A DNA stretch of 64,000 nt from a bacterium. Its GTDB lineage: Bacteria > Patescibacteriota > Minisyncoccia > Phycocordibacterales > UBA1006. Numbering within the stretch: the first letter of the stretch is position 1; every line of letters begins with the position of its first letter. The DNA is taken from assembly GCA_037144045.1 (NCBI GenBank), contig JBAWXN010000001.1:134744-198743 (forward strand). The letters are read 5' to 3'. This document shows positions 3,142 to 52,722 of the stretch, one piece after another. The notes below the pieces were generated by a model that was not told where the DNA came from, did no database searches, and saw only the letters and a list, made by a program, of their open reading frames with translations. Made by a program: the position numbers and the translations under genes.

Positions 3142-3636
3142 ATGTATACCAAAGAACAAATCTGGAATTCGTTTACTAAGGAATTTCGTATTATTAAACA
3201 CTTATCAGAAAAAATTCCAGCAGGTGGCGAACATCACAAGCCAACAGAAAAACAAAGAACTACTCTTGAATTACTGCACTACCTTGCAACATTTGGTGGT
3301 GGGATGTTTACTGTGGTTGCAACGGGTGATGGTGCAGCATTTATGAATTATGCAAAAAATGTTACAGAAATTACTGTGGAAAATTTTGCACAAGCAATTG
3401 ATAATCAAGAAGCTGCCATGAAAGAAATCTATGACGCGTTTACTGATGAGTCACTTGCAGAAGAAGTTTCGATATGGGGACAAACGCAATCACGCGCAAT
3501 CTTTCTATTAGATTGTTTAAGAATGCTTACGGCATATAAAATGCAGTTATTCCTCTACATTAAGGCCTCTGGAAATTTTGCTGTGGGAACCAGTAATGTA
3601 TGGGCGGGAATGGACATGCCTGCTCCGAAAGAATAA
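3142..3636 (+). CDS. Hypothetical protein (possibly DinB/YfiT-like helical bundle)
   Basis: Clean 164-aa ORF with its own spacing and no recognisable motif. The DinB-like assignment is a weak impression only. Confidence 0.3.
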   Translation: MYTKEQIWNSFTKEFRIIKHLSEKIPAGGEHHKPTEKQRTTLELLHYLATFGGGMFTVVATGDGAAFMNYAKNVTEITVENFAQAIDNQEAAMKEIYDAFTDESLAEEVSIWGQTQSRAIFLLDCLRMLTAYKMQLFLYIKASGNFAVGTSNVWAGMDMPAPKE

Positions 3637-3641
3637 TTCGT

Positions 3642-5381
3642 ATGAAGATTTTTCTCTACTATCTCAAAAAGTATTGGGTCATGTGCCTGGGGATATTAGT
3701 GCTTGCATTAATAAATCAATTCTTCTCGCTCCTTGAGCCGTACATCACTCAGCGTTTGATTGATAAATACGCAATGAATTTTGCGAGTTTTACACAATCT
3801 GAATTTTTGAGTGGGGTAGGGTTACTCGTGCTCGCATTTGTAGGGACAGCATTTGTTTCGCGTGTAGCAAAAAACTTTCAGGATTACTATTTAAATACCG
3901 TAAGCAAGCGATCAGGGGCTGATATGTATCGTGAAGGGGTAAAACATTCTTTGGCACTACCGTACAGTATTTTCGAAGACGAACGATCAGGGGAAACCCT
4001 TGGGAAATTACAAAAAGCGCGCCAAGATACGGAAAACTTGATGCTTCAAATCGTAAATACCGTATTTGTTTCGATTATTATTTTTACGTTCGTTGCAATA
4101 TATTCTGCGACTATTTATTGGTTGGTGCCAATTGTATTTTTTTCAATGATTTTTATCATTGGCGGGGTAAGTATTTTAATGTCGAAACGCATTAAGGCGA
4201 TTCAAAAAACGATTGTTGCCGAAACAACGGCGCTTGCAGGTTCTACGACAGAATCATTGCGTAATATTGAACTTGTTAAATCACTTGGTCTTGCTGATCA
4301 AGAAGTAGCCCATTTAAATAGTACGACTGATAAAATCTTGCAGTTGGAATTGAAAAAGCTTCGTTATTTACGTAGTCTTGATTTTGTTCAGGGAACGATT
4401 ACCAATGCAGTGCGTGCCGGACTTGTCTTTTTCTTGTTCTACTTGATTTATACTAAAACGATTACGCTTGGGCAATATTTCTCGCTCAATATTTACAGCT
4501 TCTTCTTATTTTTCCCATTACAGCAGATCGCACCGTTTATTGCTGCGTATCGTGAGACTGAAGCATCACTTGCGAACTATCAAAAACTCATGGATACCTC
4601 TCCAGAACCGAGTCCAGAACATCCTCAAGAAATTGGAGATCTTAAAGAATTTTCTTTTAATGCGGTGTCATTTGGATATGGGACTGCTGAAACAAAAGCA
4701 CTTTCAGACATTTCCTATACCGTTAAACAGGGGCAAACGGTCGCATTCGTAGGTCCATCTGGATCTGGAAAAACATCGCTGGTAAAATTACTGGTTGGAT
4801 TGTATACGCCAAATAGTGGAGCGATTTCATATAATGGTATTCGCTACGATGAAATTAATAAAGACGAACTGCGCTCACAAATTGGTTTTGTAACTCAAGA
4901 CACACAATTGTTTGCTGGTACGATTCGTGAAAACATGTTGTTCGTAAATCCAAAAGCAACGGATGATGAATGTTTGGTAGCACTCAACAGTGCGCAATGT
5001 CAGAATCTGTTGGAACGAGGAGGAAAGGGATTGGATACCGTGATTGGTGAAGGTGGGGTAAAAGTGTCTGGTGGTGAAAAGCAACGGCTTTCTATTGCGC
5101 GCGCGTTACTTCGAAAACCAAGTATCTTGATTTTCGATGAAGCAACGTCTGCACTCGATTCAATTACGGAAGAAGAAATCACGAAGACAATTCGTGATGT
5201 GTCCCAAGGGGAATCGCGAATTACGGTGCTCATTGCGCACCGACTCTCTACAATTATGCACGCAGATAAAATCTACGTTTTGGAAAAAGGTAAGATGGCT
5301 GAAATGGGAACTCATGACGAATTACTCGCTGAAAAAGGCTTGTATTACGCCATGTGGCGTCAGCAGATTGGAGAACGATAG
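3642..5381 (+). CDS. ABC transporter, fused permease/ATP-binding exporter (MsbA/MdlB-like)
   Basis: Six TM helices in the N-terminal half. Walker A GPSGSGKTS, signature LSGGEKQRLSIARAL, Walker B ILIFDEATSALD. Start chosen at the internal Met (MKIFLYY); the ORF track starts at 3600, overlapping the upstream gene. Confidence 0.9.
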   Translation: MKIFLYYLKKYWVMCLGILVLALINQFFSLLEPYITQRLIDKYAMNFASFTQSEFLSGVGLLVLAFVGTAFVSRVAKNFQDYYLNTVSKRSGADMYREGVKHSLALPYSIFEDERSGETLGKLQKARQDTENLMLQIVNTVFVSIIIFTFVAIYSATIYWLVPIVFFSMIFIIGGVSILMSKRIKAIQKTIVAETTALAGSTTESLRNIELVKSLGLADQEVAHLNSTTDKILQLELKKLRYLRSLDFVQGTITNAVRAGLVFFLFYLIYTKTITLGQYFSLNIYSFFLFFPLQQIAPFIAAYRETEASLANYQKLMDTSPEPSPEHPQEIGDLKEFSFNAVSFGYGTAETKALSDISYTVKQGQTVAFVGPSGSGKTSLVKLLVGLYTPNSGAISYNGIRYDEINKDELRSQIGFVTQDTQLFAGTIRENMLFVNPKATDDECLVALNSAQCQNLLERGGKGLDTVIGEGGVKVSGGEKQRLSIARALLRKPSILIFDEATSALDSITEEEITKTIRDVSQGESRITVLIAHRLSTIMHADKIYVLEKGKMAEMGTHDELLAEKGLYYAMWRQQIGER

Positions 5382-5539: not shown

Positions 5540-6004
5540 CTACTGCGGGGTGAATTGCTCAATTCTGAGTAATTCATTACGATGAAGGTTGCCGTCCTTC
5601 CTCTCCCACAAAAGCTCATAATCTCTGATATATGTCCAATTTGAACGGAAGAACGTCACAACCTCTTTAGTTGAATGAGAAGTGTGAGAGATATTTTCCA
5701 ATAAACATAAATAGGGTTCATTATTTTTTATTTTTATTAAACAAAGGTTACCTCGCTTGCCGCTTTTATTCAGATAGACCTGATCGGGATTGGTTATGAT
5801 TTTTTGGAGATTTTTTATGAAAAAATCAAATTCCTGAGCAGGTCTTTTATCGTAGACATGTTTCAAGGCTCTTGTAGAAAGTATTACGGTCGGCGTAAGT
5901 TCAATTTTAAAGCTAGATACACGAGTATTTTTCTGTGTATTTCTAACATATTTATTGAAAAACTTCTGAATCGACCTCCTAGACATGGGGAATAGTATAA
6001 TCAA
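5540..6004 (-). CDS. Hypothetical protein
   Basis: 154-aa ORF with no signal peptide and no recognised motif. Alternative start at Met-8 (5983). Confidence 0.35.
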   Translation of the reverse strand: MIILFPMSRRSIQKFFNKYVRNTQKNTRVSSFKIELTPTVILSTRALKHVYDKRPAQEFDFFIKNLQKIITNPDQVYLNKSGKRGNLCLIKIKNNEPYLCLLENISHTSHSTKEVVTFFRSNWTYIRDYELLWERKDGNLHRNELLRIEQFTPQ

Positions 6005-6058: not shown

Positions 6059-6092
6059 CTTGACGCCTTTTATGGAAAGAATATAATAAATT
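6059..6092 (+). promoter_or_regulatory. Putative sigma70 promoter of dnaK
   Basis: TTGACG, 16 nt, TATAAT, about 110 nt upstream of the dnaK ATG. Confidence 0.45.
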
Positions 6093-6202
6093 TGTACAAG
6101 TATTTCGCGGTCGCTGAAATAAAGTAGAAATGGTTGTTTTTCTGAATCTGCCGTGCTGTACATTAATAAATAGAATTATTAACTTTTTAAACACAGATAT
6201 AT

Positions 6203-8089
6203 ATGAGTAAAATAATCGGAATCGACTTAGGAACTACAAACAGTGCTGTCTCAATCATCGAAGGAGGACAGCCAAAAATTATTGAGAACGTAGAAGGTGC
6301 ACGAACGACACCGTCTATTGTTGCGCTTGCTAAAAATGGAGACCGAATGGTTGGAGCTTTGGCGAAACGACAAGCAGTTACGAATCCAGAAAATACTATT
6401 TTCGGAATCAAGCGCTACATGGGTCACAAATTCACCGATGAAGTAGTACAGAAAGACATGGCTCATTCGCCGTTCAAAATTACTAAAGGGGTAGAGGATG
6501 GGGTTTCTGTAAAATTGGGTGATAAAGAATATCGACCCGAAGAAATTTCATCAATGATCCTTGCAAAAATCAAGGCAGACGTTGAAGCGAAACTTGGTGA
6601 AAAAATCACTGAAGCCGTAATTACGGTGCCAGCATATTTCGACGATTCTCAGCGGCAGGCAACGGTAAACGCTGGTAAAATTGCGGGACTTGATGTAAAA
6701 CGAATTATTAATGAACCAACCGCAGCAGCGCTTGCATACGGATTTAATTCAAAGAAAGATCAGAAAATTGCGGTGTACGATTTCGGAGGAGGAACGTTCG
6801 ATATTTCAGTTCTTGAAGTAGGAGCAGATTTGGTAGAAGTGAAATCAACGGATGGAGACGCCCACATGGGTGGTGAAGACATCGATCGTGCGATTATTGA
6901 ATGGATTGCTGCAGAATTTAAAAAAGAATCAGGAATCGATGTAACGAAAGACGTGCTTGCATTACAGCGCCTCAAGGAAGCTGCTGAAAAAGCAAAGCAT
7001 GAATTGTCTACTGCTATTGAAAGTGAAATTAATATTCCATTTATCGCACAGAACGATGGAGTACCAGCTCACTTAGTAATGAAAATGACTCGAGCAAAAC
7101 TTGAGGAATTAGCTGCGCCATTCATTGATAAATCAATTGAAATTACGAAACGAGCTATTGCGGCATCACCATTTAAAATAAATGAAATTGATGAAGTGAT
7201 CATGGTAGGGGGGCAAACCCGTATGCCAAAAATCGTTGAAGAAGTTAAAAAGTTATTTGGTAAAGAACCAAATCGAACGATTAACCCCGACGAAGTGGTA
7301 GCGCTTGGTGCTGCGGTACAAGCTGGAGTTCTTCAGGGAGACGTTAAAGACGTACTGCTTTTGGACGTAATTCCACTTTCATTGGGAATTGAAACTATGG
7401 GATCTGTTGCCACAAAATTGATTGAGCGAAACACCACTATCCCAACCTCAAAATCGCAAGTGTTTTCAACTGCAGCTGATAATCAGACTTCGGTAGAAAT
7501 TCACATTGTGCAAGGAGAACGCCCTATGGCAGCTGATAACAAGTCACTGGGACGATTCGTGCTTGGTGATATTGCGCCAGCTCCACGAGGAATGCCACAA
7601 ATTGAAGTAACTTTTGATATTGACGCCAACGGAATTTTGAAGGTAAAGGCACTTGATAAAGCAACCAACAAAGAAGCATCTATTACGGTGCAATCAGGAG
7701 GTGGATTGTCAGATGCAGATATCAAGAAGATGCATGAAGATGTAGAAAAATACAAAGCGGAAGACGAGAAGAAAAAAGAACTCGTTGATAAGCGTAATAC
7801 TGCTGATACTACGATCTTTGCGGCAGAAAAGTCTTTGAAAGAATACGGAGATAAAATTCCAGCAGAAACAAAGACGGCTATCGAAGACAAAGTAAAGGCT
7901 TCGAAAGAGACTAAAGACAAAGACGATGCTGATGTGATTCACAAAGCAACCGAAGAACTTTCAACAGAAATGATGAAGATTTATGAAGTGATTCAGAAAG
8001 CTGAACAGGAAAAAGCCGCATCGGCGAATGCTACGCAGGCAGAACCTGCAGCTGATGCAGCGACAGACGGGGAAGCGAAAGCTGAATAA
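6203..8089 (+). CDS. dnaK: Molecular chaperone DnaK (Hsp70)
   Basis: [34 protein letters not shown], the substrate-binding domain and an acidic C-terminus. Full length, 628 aa. Confidence 0.97.
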
Positions 8090-8110
8090 TTCTGCGCAAT
8101 AAAAAAACAA

Positions 8111-8160
8111 CCCTGTTTCTCTTCCGAAATTCAAATTTGAATTCGGGGGAGTGTACAGGG
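8111..8160. terminator. Compound bidirectional terminator (CCCTGT ... ACAGGG outer stem, CCGAAATTCAAATTTGAATTCGG inner stem)
   Basis: Nested hairpins flanked by an A-tract on + and a T-tract on -. Homologous hairpins recur at about 8554-8598 and 9005-9040. Confidence 0.7.
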
Positions 8161-8171
8161 TTGTGTCATGT

Positions 8172-8438
8172 TTAAACATAAAAAATTATCTGACCCAAGT
8201 AAGCCTTAGGTTTCGACATGGCTTGTCCTCCAAATGTTCCTTCATCAGCAATGTTTGAGAAGAACCCAGCTGATAGTTTTGTATATCCAGAATAGATTCC
8301 GATTCCTGCATTATTCGTTCCTTGTTTAATGTAAACTTCAGTAGGAATTTTCCCGTGGAGCAAGATGAAGCAAATCAAGTGAATAAGTCGGTAGGCATAA
8401 ACCAAAAGAGAAATAAGTAGAAAAAGTATTTTCTTCAT
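8172..8438 (-). CDS. Small secreted/membrane-anchored protein, paralog 1 of a tandem family
   Basis: N-terminal hydrophobic signal/anchor (MKKILFLLISLLVYAY). Shares RxIHL ... GKxP ... IGIY ... GFFxN motifs with the 8613..8930 product. Confidence 0.55.
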   Translation of the reverse strand: MKKILFLLISLLVYAYRLIHLICFILLHGKIPTEVYIKQGTNNAGIGIYSGYTKLSAGFFSNIADEGTFGGQAMSKPKAYLGQIIFYV

Positions 8439-8475
8439 ATAGGTTGTATTTTAATTTTGTGAAAAGAATAATTCT

Positions 8476-8503
8476 ATTATACACTAAAAAATTATTTTGT
8501 CAA
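8476..8503 (-). promoter_or_regulatory. Consensus sigma70 promoter (minus strand) for the 8172..8438 gene
   Basis: Minus strand reads TTGACA (8498-8503), 16 nt, TATAAT (8476-8481). Near-identical copies lie at 8966-8993 and 9347-9374. Confidence 0.65.
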
Positions 8504-8612
8504 GTAAAAAACCTTGTTTCCAAAAGGTCGTTGAAAATTCAGGTAAACAAAAACCCTGTACCATCCCAAATAAAATCGGGGAGGGCACAGGAATTGTTGA
8601 GTGGTGAAATAC

Positions 8613-8930
8613 TTAAAAAAGAAAGCAAATTTCACCAGATTTTGAGGTAGGTTTTCTTTTTGGCATGCCACTAGCGTTCTCCCTAAAGTTTGCGAAGAAC
8701 CCATCTTTTAATGTTAGGTATTCATTATAAATACCTATAGTGGAGAGTTTTTGCTTCGGATCGATTATTGGCGCATAAAAATCATACGCAGGAGTATCTT
8801 TTTTAATCGCCCCTACTTTAAAGAAAACTTTATGAGGCACTTTTCCATTATATAATGTCCAAAGGCCTAAATGGATACCTCTTACGATGTAGATTAAAAA
8901 TCCTACAAGAGAAATTGCTATTTTTTTCAT
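8613..8930 (-). CDS. Small secreted/membrane-anchored protein, paralog 2
   Basis: MKKIAISLVGFLIYIVRGIHLG ... signal/anchor, homologous to the 8172..8438 product. Has its own promoter and terminator. Confidence 0.55.
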   Translation of the reverse strand: MKKIAISLVGFLIYIVRGIHLGLWTLYNGKVPHKVFFKVGAIKKDTPAYDFYAPIIDPKQKLSTIGIYNEYLTLKDGFFANFRENASGMPKRKPTSKSGEICFLF

Positions 8931-8965
8931 ATAAATAAAATTTGTTTTTTGAAAGAATAATATAT

Positions 8966-8993
8966 ATTATACACGAAAAATGTATTTTGTCAA
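8966..8993 (-). promoter_or_regulatory. Consensus sigma70 promoter (minus strand), copy 2
   Basis: TTGACA (8988-8993), 16 nt, TATAAT (8966-8971) on the minus strand. The flanking sequence GAAAGAATAATATATATTATACACGAAAAATGTATTTTGTCAAGTAAAAAACC is homologous to copy 1. Confidence 0.65.
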
Positions 8994-9047
8994 GTAAAAA
9001 ACCTGCACACGATCCGAATCAATTCGGGGTGTACAGGGTTGCGAGTT

Positions 9048-9314
9048 CTACCAGCCATGAAATCCAGCCTTCTGTTTCTCATCGCGAAAGCATTCAATGT
9101 ATCCCATAAAATGGAGTGAGTCCATCGCGTGAGGATTTTCTTTGAAGTTATAGCCAATGAAGAAAAGAGAATCATCAAATCGCTTGTTTTCTTTTTTAAG
9201 CGAATCGATAAGGATATCTTGTTGTTTAATTAGTCTATCTTGTTTGTGTAGACTTGTTAGTCCAAATCCTGCAACAACAAAAAGAGCAACTGAAAAAAGA
9301 AAAAAAGATTTCAT
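9048..9314 (-). CDS. Small secreted protein (third cassette, sequence diverged)
   Basis: Signal peptide MKSFFLFSVALFVVAGFG. It sits in the same promoter/terminator context as the two upstream paralogs. Confidence 0.5.
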   Translation of the reverse strand: MKSFFLFSVALFVVAGFGLTSLHKQDRLIKQQDILIDSLKKENKRFDDSLFFIGYNFKENPHAMDSLHFMGYIECFRDEKQKAGFHGW

Positions 9315-9346
9315 AGAGAGTATTTTATTGTTAAAAGAATATCACT

Positions 9347-9374
9347 ATTATACATAAAATAATATATTTGTCAA
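9347..9374 (-). promoter_or_regulatory. Consensus sigma70 promoter (minus strand), copy 3
   Basis: TTGACA (9369-9374), 16 nt, TATAAT (9347-9352) on the minus strand. Confidence 0.6.
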
Positions 9375-9391
9375 ATATATCTAGTTTCTCC

Positions 9392-9427
9392 TTGTTTCTC
9401 AACAAATTTCCTATATAATCTGTTGAG
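9392..9427 (+). promoter_or_regulatory. Putative dnaJ promoter with an overlapping inverted-repeat operator
   Basis: TTGTTT (9392-9397), 16 nt, TATAAT (9414-9419). The 7-bp inverted repeat CTCAACA (9398-9404) / TGTTGAG (9421-9427) brackets the -10. Confidence 0.4.
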
Positions 9428-9454
9428 TATACAGGGCTAAAAACCCGTTCTCTT

Positions 9455-10534
9455 ATGTCAAAAGATTTTTATAAAATTTTAGGAGTCGAGAAAAACGCCA
9501 GTGAGGCGGATATTAAGGTTGCCTTTAGAAAACTTGCTCATCAACATCATCCCGATAAAAACAAAGGTGATGATAAGAAGTTCAAGGAAATTAATGAGGC
9601 ATATCAAACTCTTTCTGATAAAACAAAACGTGCACAATATGATCAGTTTGGTAGCAGTGGTCCACAGTTTGGTGGTGGCGGAAACCCGTTCGGAGGTGCC
9701 GGAGGCAATCCTTTTGAAGGATTTGATTTTTCACAATTCCAGCAAGGTGCTGGTGGCTTTGAATTTGACCTCGGTGATTTGTTTGGTGGTGGCTTCGGTG
9801 GAGGTCGTGGACGACCTCGGAAAGGAAATGACTTAGAAACAAGTATTAAAATTACTTTTAAAGAATCAGTATTTGGTGTGGAGAAAAAAGTAGCTCTTAC
9901 AAAAAACAATACGTGTGCAACCTGTCATGGAAATGGTGCAAAGCCAGGTACTTCACTGCATACTTGTAAAACCTGTAATGGACAAGGACGTGTTACACGG
10001 GTACAGCGAACTATTTTAGGAAACATGCAAACTGCAATAGAATGTGACGTATGTTTCGGAACGGGCAAGGTTCCTGAAACTAAATGTGATACGTGTCGCG
10101 GTGCGGGAATCGTACGAGGCAAAGAAGAACTCACTATTCATATTCCAGAAGGAATTAATAATGGTGACACGTTACGTATGGACGGTGCAGGGGAGGCAAT
10201 GCCTGGAGTAAAATCAGGTGATTTATATATTCACATTCAGGTAGAATCACATGCGACATTCAAACGTATGGGAAATGATCTAATAATGCCTCTTGAAATT
10301 AAATTAGTAGATGCGCTCCTTGGGAAAAATATCGAAATTGAAACACTGGACGGCAAGGAAATCCTTGAAGTTCCCGAGGGGACTGCAACAGGGGATCAGT
10401 TAAAAATTCGCCACAAGGGAATTCCTCATGGGCGTTCTCGAGGTGATATTATTGTAGGTATTAAAGTGACAATTCCTAAGCGACTTTCTAAAAAAGCAAA
10501 AGAACTTATTGAAGTATTGAAACTGGAGCTGTAG
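9455..10534 (+). CDS. dnaJ: Chaperone DnaJ (Hsp40, type I)
   Basis: J domain with HPD (HQHHPDKNKG), a G/F-rich linker, four CxxCxGxG zinc-finger repeats and a C-terminal domain. Confidence 0.95.
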   Translation: MSKDFYKILGVEKNASEADIKVAFRKLAHQHHPDKNKGDDKKFKEINEAYQTLSDKTKRAQYDQFGSSGPQFGGGGNPFGGAGGNPFEGFDFSQFQQGAGGFEFDLGDLFGGGFGGGRGRPRKGNDLETSIKITFKESVFGVEKKVALTKNNTCATCHGNGAKPGTSLHTCKTCNGQGRVTRVQRTILGNMQTAIECDVCFGTGKVPETKCDTCRGAGIVRGKEELTIHIPEGINNGDTLRMDGAGEAMPGVKSGDLYIHIQVESHATFKRMGNDLIMPLEIKLVDALLGKNIEIETLDGKEILEVPEGTATGDQLKIRHKGIPHGRSRGDIIVGIKVTIPKRLSKKAKELIEVLKLEL

Positions 10535-10549
10535 TTTGACTAACTGTTT

Positions 10550-10816
10550 TTGTGTGTTATACTCATAAAAACAGGGCCAATGATTCCAGGATCGATTCTC
10601 GCAATTATATTTATCTTGTTTTGCTTGTTCCTCTTTGTGTCGTATTTCTTCTATTTATATTTTCGAGGCCATAAACACGCTTGGGGAATTACTCAGAAGC
10701 GATGGAGTATTTTTATTTTCTTGATTAAGAATATTCGGACCATGCTGAAAAAGTTTAGTAATGTACTCGTTCATGAATTCGAACAGCAAAACAAAAAAAG
10801 ACCGCCCGATGGGTAG
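10550..10816 (+). CDS. Hypothetical small membrane protein (doubtful)
   Basis: 88-aa ORF with one or two hydrophobic segments. Its 3' end runs into the terminator hairpin, so it may be spurious. Confidence 0.25.
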   Translation: MCVILIKTGPMIPGSILAIIFILFCLFLFVSYFFYLYFRGHKHAWGITQKRWSIFIFLIKNIRTMLKKFSNVLVHEFEQQNKKRPPDG

Positions 10817-46182: not shown

Positions 46183-46584
46183 TTAAAACGTTTGAGAAAG
46201 TGGTCTTGCTCCCTCTCCCTTTGGGAGAGGGTTGGGGTGAGGGGTTGATAATACGTGTCTGATCTTCTGAATAACGCTTTCTGGATGAGCTCGAAGTTCT
46301 TGGTTCGAAAATCTGAGACAGGTAATACCATATCCAGCAAGGTGTCGGCTTTTAGCAGTATCATAGGCTTGAGTATATTCGTGGTAGGGTCCATCTAGCT
46401 CCACGACAAGCATTTTCTCGTGACAATAAAAATCTACAACATAGTAATCAATTGAATGTTGACGTCTGAATTTATATCCAAGTTTCCTATTTCTGAGTAT
46501 TTCCCAGAGTAATGTTTCTTCAGGGGTGGTGTGACGCCGCAAAGATCTTCTCTTGATTAGTTCTCGTTCAAAGTTCCAGTACAT
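46183..46584 (-). CDS. DUF559 endonuclease-domain protein (Vsr/restriction-endonuclease-like fold), copy 1
   Basis: TPEETLLWEILRNRKLGYKFRRQHSIDYYVVDFYCHEKMLVVELDGPYHE is a typical DUF559 core. The last roughly 20 codons read through the left inverted repeat, so the real C-terminus is uncertain. Confidence 0.7.
   Translation of the reverse strand: MYWNFERELIKRRSLRRHTTPEETLLWEILRNRKLGYKFRRQHSIDYYVVDFYCHEKMLVVELDGPYHEYTQAYDTAKSRHLAGYGITCLRFSNQELRAHPESVIQKIRHVLSTPHPNPLPKGEGARPLSQTF
46211..46246. repeat. Left terminal inverted repeat of DUF559 element 1
   Basis: CCCTCTCCCTTTGGGAGAGGG (itself a palindrome) + TTGGGGTGAGGGGTT. Its reverse complement matches 46660-46694. Confidence 0.8.
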
Positions 46585-52350: not shown

Positions 52351-52722
52351 TCACCCAATCCTAACCCGGTTCACGCAGTGAACCACCCTCTCCACTAGCG
52401 TGGAGAGGGTTTCCGAATTCTGTATTTCGCTGTTCAAAATTCTAATAGTCTTAATTCCTCGAGTGCTAAAGAATTTACTCCGAACGGAATCATATTCAAC
52501 TCCTTTCTCGGTGGTGTGATGTAGTCCGTCTATTTCTAGAGCTACTTTTTTTGAGTGGCAGTAGAAATCTACAATATAGTAACCAATACTTACTTGTCTA
52601 CGCCATTTAAGGCCAGATTTATTTTTTCTCAGTAGTTGCCACATAGTCTCTTCCTCGGGTGTTTGTTTTTTTCTGAGCTGTCTACGTTTTTTTAAATTTG
52701 TACCATCATTAATAAGTTTCAT
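52351..52722 (-). CDS. DUF559 endonuclease-domain protein, copy 2 (paralog of 46183..46584)
   Basis: TPEEETMWQLLRKNKSGLKWRRQVSIGYYIVDFYCHSKKVALEIDGLHH aligns with copy 1 at about 45% identity. Start taken at MKLINDG; the ORF track extends to 52779 through the right IR. The C-terminus reads through the left IR. Confidence 0.7.
   Translation of the reverse strand: MKLINDGTNLKKRRQLRKKQTPEEETMWQLLRKNKSGLKWRRQVSIGYYIVDFYCHSKKVALEIDGLHHTTEKGVEYDSVRSKFFSTRGIKTIRILNSEIQNSETLSTLVERVVHCVNRVRIG
52352..52410. repeat. Left terminal inverted repeat of DUF559 element 2
   Basis: CACCCAATCCTAACCCGG + GGTTCACGCAGTGAACC (palindrome) + ACCCTCTCCACTAGCGTGGAGAGGGT (palindrome). Inverted copy at 52748-52806. Confidence 0.8.

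Follow-up and report, generated by a model that had tools for sequence, protein, structure and literature searches.

Phage morons are stretches of extra DNA that stand between otherwise adjacent genes, carry a promoter and a terminator of their own, often deviate in GC content and are met with in several backgrounds (Hendrix and colleagues; PMC2920897). The locus described here, the spacer between the chaperone genes dnaK and dnaJ in a 64,000-nt stretch of a Patescibacteriota genome (assembly GCA_037144045.1, contig JBAWXN010000001.1, positions 134,744 to 198,743; hereafter the window, with positions counted from its first letter), resembles a moron in several respects. It is an insert between genes that are adjacent in relatives, the gap being 99-191 nt, with both genes on the same strand, in the more distant Candidate Phyla Radiation (CPR)/Patescibacteria genomes that we label L008, L026, L028 and L040, as against 1,365 nt (1.36 kb) here. 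By sequence prediction its units are autonomous, each with a promoter and a factor-independent terminator of its own, its cargo is often a small membrane or fitness protein, and one unit can occur in different genomic backgrounds. Unlike a moron, it sits in a cellular chromosome between core chaperone genes, with no phage genes nearby and no match among PHROGs, in IMG/VR (terminator, ORF1/2 and ORF3), in GenBank phages (ORF1) or, for the whole slot, in PLSDB. Its promoter and terminator stay while the open reading frame (ORF) between them changes, whereas a classical moron brings its own, and its ORFs are low in GC but equal the host genome in third-position GC (GC3). We think it moderately probable that the dnaK-dnaJ spacer is a clade-specific, moron-like expression slot for strain-variable accessory genes, which in this genome would be small envelope-anchored proteins.

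The slot lies between dnaK (6203..8089, plus strand, a 628-aa ORF) and dnaJ (9455..10534, plus strand, 359 aa, of the zinc-finger type), which form its left and right conserved flanks and are, with cysS, its flank genes. The minus strand of the spacer holds three ORFs of 88, 105 and 88 aa. An earlier note on this DNA, made from the letters alone, had described three minus-strand cassettes at this place and had called the chaperone genes dispersed; both statements hold, grpE being found at ~95-538, ~5.7 kb upstream of dnaK. The note had also given each cassette a near-perfect sigma-70 promoter. The sites TTGACA-16 nt-TATAAT upstream of ORF1, ORF2 and ORF3, at 8476-8503, 8966-8993 and 9347-9374, in fact match the consensus at 12 of 12 positions each, and they are the only perfect TTGACA-N15-18-TATAAT sites in the window, for which 0.10 were expected and for which none of 100 shuffles reached three. 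Nine sites in the window match at 11 or more of the 12 positions, among them the promoter of dnaK itself (TTGACG-16-TATAAT, 11/12, at 6060-6087), and because all nine stand 17-115 nt upstream of an ORF, the sigma-70 consensus is informative in this genome. The features to which the note had drawn attention are real and statistically exceptional.

The homology among the three promoters is not confined to the hexamers. By nucleotide alignment it extends over 60 nt and runs from the stretch before the -35 through spacer and -10 into the leader (repeat family D1), with P2 82% and P3 70% identical to the reference copy, P1. On the minus strand, promoter and leader P1 of unit 1 occupy 8455..8514 (-35 at 8498-8503, -10 at 8476-8481, 16-nt spacer), with an AT-rich leader that contains TATTCTTTTCACAA. 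P2 of unit 2 occupies 8945..9004 (-35 at 8988-8993, -10 at 8966-8971) and directly adjoins the U-tract of the terminator of unit 3, and P3 of unit 3 occupies 9326..9385 (-35 at 9369-9374, -10 at 9347-9352). The leaders are ~30 nt long, AT-rich and without a Shine-Dalgarno sequence. Their lack of such a sequence was dropped as an argument against translation, since only 1 of the 35 ORFs of at least 200 aa in the window has GGAG, GAGG, AGGA or AAGG within 20 nt of its first ATG; where Shine-Dalgarno sequences are nearly absent genome-wide, their absence before ORF1-3 is uninformative. The promoter pattern had seven matches in IMG/VR, which we set aside as generic strong low-GC phage promoters with Shine-Dalgarno sites and unrelated genes.

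Behind each of the three ORFs stand a nested hairpin rich in G+C and a U-tract. T1, the predicted terminator of unit 1 (8100..8164, minus strand), is formed by a nested hairpin (CAACCCTGTACACTCCCCCGAA...TTCGGAAGAGAAACAGGGTTG) with a run of seven U behind it on the minus strand; it is common to unit 1 and dnaK, which meet tail-to-tail, and its free energy is -27.2 kcal/mol on the minus strand (z = -6.4) and -33.5 kcal/mol on the plus strand (z = -7.6). T3, behind unit 3 (8996..9038, minus strand), consists of CCTGTACACCCCGAATTGATTCGGATCGTGTGCAGG and then UUUUUU (-19.7 kcal/mol, z = -4.7 vs shuffles), and its arm GTGTACAGGGTTG is common to T1 (repeat D4). T2, behind unit 2 (8545..8594, minus strand), followed by UUUUUGUUU, is a diverged member of the same hairpin family that stands in an inverted-repeat relation to the T1 arm (I6) and folds at -24.1 kcal/mol (z = -3.5 vs shuffles). 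The nested-hairpin terminators of the note are accordingly found behind every ORF, with z from -3.5 to -6.4, while the form CCTGTACAC...ACAGG that it had assigned to all of them has diverged in unit 2. By the look of these promoters and terminators the units are predicted to be autonomous and probably strongly transcribed, as had been suggested.

A fourth hairpin, H4, lies between P3 and dnaJ (9390..9436; CCTTGTTT-CTCAACA...TGTTGAG-TATACAGGG) and folds at -15.4 kcal/mol (z = -3.9). Its inner inverted repeat is CTCAACA-N16-TGTTGAG, and its loop has a TATAAT facing dnaJ with a TTGTTT 16 nt before it. The stem is kept with base changes in a relative, L003 (~757-815; ..TGTTGGG), as is the inner stem in another, L001 (~185-230; CCCAACA..TGTTGGG). 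Judged by eye, H4 (CCTTGTTTCTC..., ...GAGTATACAGGG) and T1 (CCCTGTTTCTC..., ...GAGTGTACAGGG) have similar arms, and H4 could be an operator or attenuator of dnaJ, or merely a fourth copy of the terminator family. The plus strand of the slot has three copies of the motif GTRYACAGGG (in T1, T3 and H4), against 0.16 expected for the whole window. The idea that the hairpins are a genome-wide repeat was dropped, the sole other GTRYACAGGG site being a chance match inside a 706-aa gene, as was a heat-shock operator common to dnaJ and dnaK, CAACA..TGTTG being absent upstream of dnaK and not enriched in the window. Two of the four matches to the terminator pattern in metagenomes (L085 and L087) are chance matches inside high-GC coding DNA. 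An Rfam scan across the slot gave no match, and its one sub-threshold hit, to DUF2815 RNA (24 vs a 41-bit cutoff), was treated as chance.

The cargo of these units does not follow the pattern of its surroundings. ORF1 (8172..8438, minus strand, 88 aa) and ORF2 (8613..8930, minus strand, 105 aa; the hypothetical protein WCG20_00755 of NCBI) are homologous (32% identity, E = 3e-14), and the description of the two as paralogs stands, ORF2 being an old paralog with a 19-residue insertion after the first strand. ORF3 (9048..9314, minus strand, 88 aa; locus tag WCG20_00760) begins with a hydrophobic helix and is conserved in its C-terminal half (DDSLFFIGYNFKEN..MDSLHFMGYI), and it gave no BLASTP alignment with ORF1 and a probability of 0.4% when the two small families were compared by hhalign. 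Because ORF3 is unrelated to ORF1 and ORF2, only promoter, leader and terminator are triplicated, and the cargo is two old paralogs and an unrelated gene. The earlier claim of a tandem triplication of a complete unit has to be given up, and "ORF3 has diverged" is better replaced by a statement that ORF3 is a different gene, a homolog of which is the sole occupant of the slot in L001. The locus is not a triplicated gene but, in our reading, a three-unit fill of a clade-specific, strain-variable expression slot.

Both families are extremely lineage-restricted. A profile hidden Markov model of ORF1 and ORF2, searched against 1.84 billion representatives, found only ORF2 itself, P0004 (92% to ORF1) and P0005 (58%), so that the ORF1/2 family amounts to three 50%-identity clusters in this set; a 996-aa PKD-repeat protein and a 425-aa repeat protein returned by the same profile were rejected as score inflation by motifs and repeats (GKVPL, KDGFFGN). 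In 5.8 billion clusters ORF2 matched only itself. ORF3 has one homolog (P0003), and a repeat search with the ORF3 alignment gave no further members. For the three proteins, no entry of Pfam, NCBIfam, PADLOC or PHROGs reached or approached the threshold, PDB sequence profiles gave no match, and the best Foldseek hits of the ORF1 model in PDB and BFVD (E 3.3 and 1.7) are noise. The profile searches that the note had proposed for these 88/105-aa proteins lead to no known family or fold, and the slot adds two new orphan protein families, ORF1/2 and ORF3.

Comparison with relatives separates what belongs to the site from what is replaced. In a GTDB scan with the DnaK C-terminus, the nearest sequences came from CPR/Patescibacteria metagenome-assembled genomes (MAGs), L005 and L006 with DnaK 87-89% identical to that of the window and the next, at 65-72%, from Saccharibacteria, Paceibacteria and Nomurabacteria. 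In most other genomes carrying both genes, dnaK and dnaJ are close and on the same strand; the antisense insert is confined to the close clade, and its content varies by genome. Eight contigs, from six close relatives, have one or two units at the dnaK-dnaJ site, where the note had proposed to look for one, two or three copies, and the cargo differs. L001 has the ORF3 homolog (P0003) as its sole gene. L002 and L003 have an ORF1 ortholog beside dnaJ and an unrelated 60-aa non-membrane ORF beside dnaK, and L004 has a 92% ORF1 ortholog beside dnaK, together with the remnant of a hairpin and, upstream of dnaJ, a gene for a PemK toxin. A 62-aa ORF with two transmembrane (TM) segments and a DUF559 nuclease gene fill the slot of L005, and a 66-aa two-TM ORF that of L006. 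L086 and L088 have ORFs of 204 aa (cargo region 613 nt) and 100 aa (278 nt), respectively, both without a membrane segment (for L086 as judged from sequence only); the two contigs are collinear, with flanks 94% and 91% identical and unrelated cargo.

Beyond the PemK toxin and the DUF559 nuclease, the window and its relatives hold seven mutually unrelated cargo types. For six cargo and neighbour ORFs of relatives and window, Pfam, PADLOC and PHROGs gave no match that reached or approached the threshold. Ten cassettes with these seven cargo types nevertheless have promoters that align: the TTGAC of the -35 does not vary, the -10 hardly varies, and a TTCTTT motif is common to the leaders. Five of the seven promoters of the relatives' cassettes are also 12/12, and P2 is near-identical in -35, spacer and -10 to the promoter of the L005 cassette, whose cargo is unrelated. 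The dnaK-side terminator is near-identical in seven genomes (window, L001, L003, L004, L005, L086 and L088) whatever the cargo. Since promoters and terminator are conserved where cargo differs, we take the promoter/leader and the hairpin terminator to belong to the site and the ORF to be replaceable. On this evidence the slot would be filled by autonomous monocistronic units, antisense to the chaperone genes, each made up of a consensus sigma-70 promoter, a ~30-nt AT-rich leader, one small ORF and an intrinsic terminator; promoter-leader and hairpin remain at the site, and the ORF between them is replaced. The ancestral site was probably a simple dnaK-dnaJ operon junction that such antisense units split.

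Evidence for exchange between lineages comes from the comparison of the window with L004. Of the 267 nt of ORF1, 9 differ between the two, and only 2 synonymous differences fall on its ~60 synonymous sites, whereas the first 66 codons of dnaJ (the J-domain) have 19.5 synonymous differences over 36.7 sites (pS = 0.53; Fisher p = 8e-9 for the contrast). In L004, moreover, dnaJ is of another type, with 305 aa and no zinc finger, and the dnaK tail is different. Section by section, 24/28 positions agree in the promoter core and 34/36 in the leader, the ORF matches at 258/267 and the terminator at 59/64, and the dnaK tail at 25/33; this peak from leader to terminator points to a recently shared tract that runs roughly from the -10 to the hairpin. 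With the ORF1 unit ~97% identical to the unit of L004 and dnaJ synonymously saturated, recent exchange is implied, and homologous replacement of the cassette via its conserved flanks would be the simplest reading of the contrast.

The three units of the window also bear marks of how the array may have grown. Four related hairpins (T1, T2, T3 and H4) bracket them, the upstream edge of P1 keeps GGAAACAAGG and a T-tract that look like a fragment of a hairpin arm, and the P2/T3 junction (GTGCAGGTTTTTTACTTGACA) also precedes the ORF1 promoter in L004. We infer that the platform was duplicated when hairpin and promoter modules recombined unequally, so that a one-unit site would have grown to the three units of this genome, now filled, as we see it, with two anciently diverged paralogs of one orphan family and the unrelated orphan ORF3. 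Because ORF2 is about equally far from ORF1 (32%) and from the L002/L003 ortholog of ORF1 (36%), either the split is old or ORF2 was imported, and by these distances ORF1 and ORF2 are not a recent in-place duplication.

Seven unrelated cargo types at one site, proteins of 204 and 100 aa between 91-94% flanks among them, are hard to obtain by divergence and loss alone, and we therefore think it unlikely that the locus is a static, vertically inherited paralog array, in which duplicates diverged in place (ORF3 beyond recognition), nothing moved, and relatives lost different members. Such an array would explain why promoter, leader and terminator are homologous across the three units and why ORF1 and ORF2 are paralogous, and hairpin-arm fragments such as GAAACAAGG with its T-tract at the upstream edge of P1 are what unequal crossing-over is expected to leave. 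It could also draw on a weak collinearity of the first 41 residues of ORF3 with the 60-aa cargo of L002/L003 (L002 431-613; 34% identity, E = 0.013 in a single comparison), where a shared L[IL]DSLKK is either the remnant of a relationship or chance. It does not account for an ORF1 unit that is ~97% identical between genomes whose dnaJ has a pS of 0.53. The 204-aa cargo of L086 (868-1479), moreover, has a 34% homolog (E = 4e-24) in L006 at 702-1304, ~3.4 kb upstream of dnaK, and since this is another locus, one cargo family at least is not confined to the slot.

The products of the three ORFs are probably membrane proteins. All three have an N-terminal hydrophobic stretch (maximum 19-residue Kyte-Doolittle mean 1.9-2.2), in line with the signal or anchor proposed in the note. 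The best AlphaFold model of ORF1, computed from a four-sequence ORF1/2 alignment, has a pLDDT of 89.5 and consists of a helix at 2-28, three strands and a short helix, as for a single-pass membrane protein with a small beta-rich domain after its N-terminal helix; the model of ORF3 is helical and of low confidence (pLDDT 72). R17 and H20 are conserved within the hydrophobic helix of the ORF1/2 alignment. A rule-based reading of that alignment found no conserved small residues at -3 and -1 on either side of the helix (VYAY/VYVY/VYLS/IYIV precede R17, and L/F/Y stand at -3 before G29) and no GG leader, so that an uncleaved signal anchor is more likely and "secreted", in the note's wording, is not borne out. 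All three products would then be uncleaved, N-terminally anchored single-pass proteins, each displaying a small domain of ~55-75 residues on the outside of the cell; their expression would be constitutive and high, and their role a strain-specific one in the envelope. Membrane anchoring and high expression of the three units are plausible from these predictions. Strain-specific envelope or conflict functions are our best guess for the cargo, because membrane proteins here and toxin and nuclease genes in relatives share one site.

The earlier note had gone further and had suggested that the ORFs are three copies of one duplicated unit encoding highly expressed, fast-evolving secreted or surface effectors, similar to bacteriocins or adhesins, that an episymbiont might use against or on its host. 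The hydrophobic N-termini, the perfect promoters and the extreme lineage restriction would suit such peptides, as would the organism, a member of the CPR/Patescibacteria whose nearest DnaK relatives are labelled Saccharibacteria or Paceibacteria. We consider this account improbable, ORF3 being unrelated to ORF1 and ORF2 and the alignments holding neither a conserved signal-peptidase site nor a double-glycine site. The rapid evolution is not there: ORF1 compared with its 58% ortholog P0005 (L002, L003) gives dN 0.31, dS 1.8 and dN/dS ~0.17, and ORF3 compared with its 63% homolog P0003 (L001) gives dN 0.26, dS 2.5 and dN/dS ~0.10. With dS saturated in both pairs, dN/dS is at most ~0.1-0.2, and ORF1 and ORF3 are under purifying selection; what varies at the site does so by replacement of whole genes. 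The cargo of L002 (60 aa), L088 (100 aa) and L086 (204 aa, by its sequence only) has no membrane segment, which argues that the platform is not dedicated to secreted peptides, and the same slot in relatives holds the PemK toxin and the DUF559 nuclease.

Nor did we find anything specific to bacteriocins or adhesins. The units are monocistronic, unlike a class II bacteriocin operon, no processing, export, immunity or modification gene adjoins them, and in the nearest ABC exporter (3600-5381) the only domains are ABC_membrane and ABC_tran, with no C39 peptidase domain; the products matched nothing in Pfam, NCBIfam, PADLOC, PHROGs, PDB or BFVD. A type IV pilin or pseudopilin was considered and rejected as well, since the N-termini (MKKILFLL..., MKKIAISL... 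and MKSFFLFS...) have no G/FxxxE motif and Foldseek returned no pilin.

A miniature defence or conflict island, with the ORFs as small membrane toxins or as phage-exclusion or abortive-infection genes, is in our view a still poorer candidate. Prophage exclusion genes are typically small membrane proteins with their own promoter and terminator. PemK in L004, DUF559 in L005 and a weakly PBECR3-like ORF upstream of dnaK in the window stand in or beside the slot, and content varies between close relatives as it does in defence hotspots. No cargo matched PADLOC or PHROGs, however, and no antitoxin partner accompanies the ORFs; constitutive expression from a consensus promoter would kill the cell if they were unpartnered toxins. 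A type I toxin-antitoxin pair was rejected because the products have 88-105 aa and a predicted folded C-terminal domain outside the membrane, where classical type I toxins are hydrophobic and shorter than ~60 aa, and because the best plus-strand promoter-like sites inside the units, which an antisense RNA would need, reach 9/12 and Rfam gave no match. That the ORFs are incidental and transcription itself is the function, with the antisense units insulating dnaJ from dnaK read-through or making regulatory RNAs, is very improbable even though antisense orientation and platform are conserved where cargo is not and H4 overlaps a putative dnaJ -10, because ORF1 and ORF3 have dN/dS well under 1, ORF1 and ORF2 are conserved as protein at saturated DNA divergence, the Rfam scan was empty and ORF1 has a confident AlphaFold model.

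Several points weigh against a strain-variable expression slot for envelope-anchored proteins, and some concern the exchange of units. The case for exchange depends on one 2.4-kb Logan contig (L004), which is possibly chimeric across the conserved promoter and terminator. The ORFs have a GC content of 0.336-0.356, against 0.405 +/- 0.017 in 35 long ORFs, a difference for which their amino-acid content can account, and because cargo GC3 (0.28-0.33) is that of the genome (0.32), composition does not independently point to a foreign origin. Promoters and terminators were called by consensus and by thermodynamic prediction only. On the side of the proteins, the other four AlphaFold models of ORF1 have pLDDT from 73 down to 56 with an alignment of four sequences, the missing signal-peptidase site was judged by rule and not by a trained predictor, and no family, fold or neighbourhood clue links the products of ORF1-3 to any process. 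A last point is the assembly. Logan contig L096 (SRR12676975), an independent assembly, is 100% identical to window 8561-10164 and so spans ORF2, ORF3 and dnaJ, but it ends at 8561, inside the T2 hairpin and just short of unit 1. Since we found no database record of the exact ORF1 protein either, the junction of units 1 and 2 (~8440-8612) rests on the MAG, without independent assembly support. Repeat-induced fragmentation or strain heterogeneity, with alleles that have or lack the ORF1 unit, could account for the break of L096 inside T2.

A more specific proposal, which we offer tentatively and hold to be clearly less likely than the expression slot itself, is that single-gene cassettes are exchanged at this fixed chromosomal site without a dedicated recombinase, the promoter/leader and the terminator serving as portable homology arms. 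If this is true, arrays can grow by duplication of the arms, populations could pass small envelope or conflict genes into and out of a single slot that is constitutively strong, and a promoter and a terminator suffice for a minimal form of cassette exchange that is functionally parallel to an integron or a phage moron site. If promoter and terminator are not recombination arms, the locus is an ordinary small variable region with three orphan membrane proteins. CPR/Patescibacteria genomes are tiny, and strain differences are thought to concentrate in envelope and host-interaction functions; to our knowledge, very few concrete variable loci have been described in these bacteria. The present one is compact, easily recognised and flanked by two universal marker genes, and it lends itself to amplification or mining in any metagenome where the clade is present. 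It would give a direct view of accessory-gene turnover and candidates for highly expressed surface proteins, would supply, for a lineage not in culture, natural promoters and terminators that look very strong, and would show how antisense units can split an ancestral dnaK-dnaJ operon.

The genes around the slot call for a few remarks of their own. The promoter region of dnaK (window 6059-6119, 143 nt upstream of dnaK) matches L005 3683-3743 and L006 3765-3810, where the matching segments sit ~0.9 kb upstream of dnaK, which implies extra DNA between segment and gene in both genomes. Just upstream of the dnaK promoter in the window, a 154-aa ORF (5540-6004, minus strand) resembles PBECR3, a Barnase/EndoU/colicin/RelE-like nuclease, at a level below threshold (E = 3e-5, 24 bits vs a 30-bit cutoff), and may be another conflict-type gene beside dnaK. 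Between dnaJ and cysS lies a small hydrophobic ORF of up to 88 aa (10536-10816, plus strand; maximum 19-residue Kyte-Doolittle mean 2.97) with no family match; it is preceded by a 10/12 site, TTGACT-16-TATACT, with an upstream TG, and L005 has a 66-aa positional counterpart at 8642-8842. The dnaJ gene is dimorphic within the close clade. In the window, L005 and probably L003 it encodes 359-362 aa with a CxxCxGxG zinc-finger region, and in L004 (447-1364), L006 (6962-7888), L086 (1634-2554) and L088 (1345-2265) it encodes 305-308 aa without the zinc finger, the J-domains of the two forms being ~84% identical at the DNA level. The DUF559 gene in the slot of L005 (7070-7456) has two 41-48% identical homologs, Vsr-like endonucleases, in the window (46261-46554 and 52423-52722, both minus strand). 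It is bracketed in L005 by a G+C-rich palindrome, CCCTCTTT(T)AGAGGG, then GGCGGTGGGAGTAC, of which a solo copy lies in the dnaJ leader of L003 and none was found in the window; gene and palindrome together suggest a small mobile DUF559 element.

Among other known systems, the slot invites comparison with chromosomal integration hotspots, with tandem paralog arrays and with integrons. It has in common with hotspots a fixed core pair, dnaK and dnaJ, around content that varies between close relatives and that in some of them includes toxin and nuclease genes. It is tiny for a hotspot, 0.3-1.4 kb with one to three genes, and shows no integrase, transfer RNA or mobile-element hallmarks within the slot; its cargo, antisense and monocistronic in every case, makes repeated use of a conserved consensus promoter and hairpin. 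With tandem paralog arrays of small membrane proteins it shares the ORF1/ORF2 pair and its duplicated regulatory flanks, but the third unit and the units of relatives carry unrelated ORFs, and the divergence of one unit is discordant with that of its flanks. Integron arrays are likewise tandem series of single-ORF cassettes, each bounded by one family of imperfect palindromes with conserved outer arms and a variable centre, with cargo that is unrelated between cassettes and often a small orphan. In contrast to integron cassettes, which are promoterless and read from Pc, every unit of the slot has its own promoter, and its palindromes are terminator-like, with U-tracts and without the R'/R'' boxes of attC; no IntI gene or attI site was seen adjoining the array, a statement that covers the adjacent ORFs, integrases elsewhere in the genome not having been searched for. 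Set beside these systems, what would be new at the dnaK-dnaJ site is a chromosomal, platform-retaining variant of the moron and hotspot theme in CPR bacteria, together with two orphan protein families.

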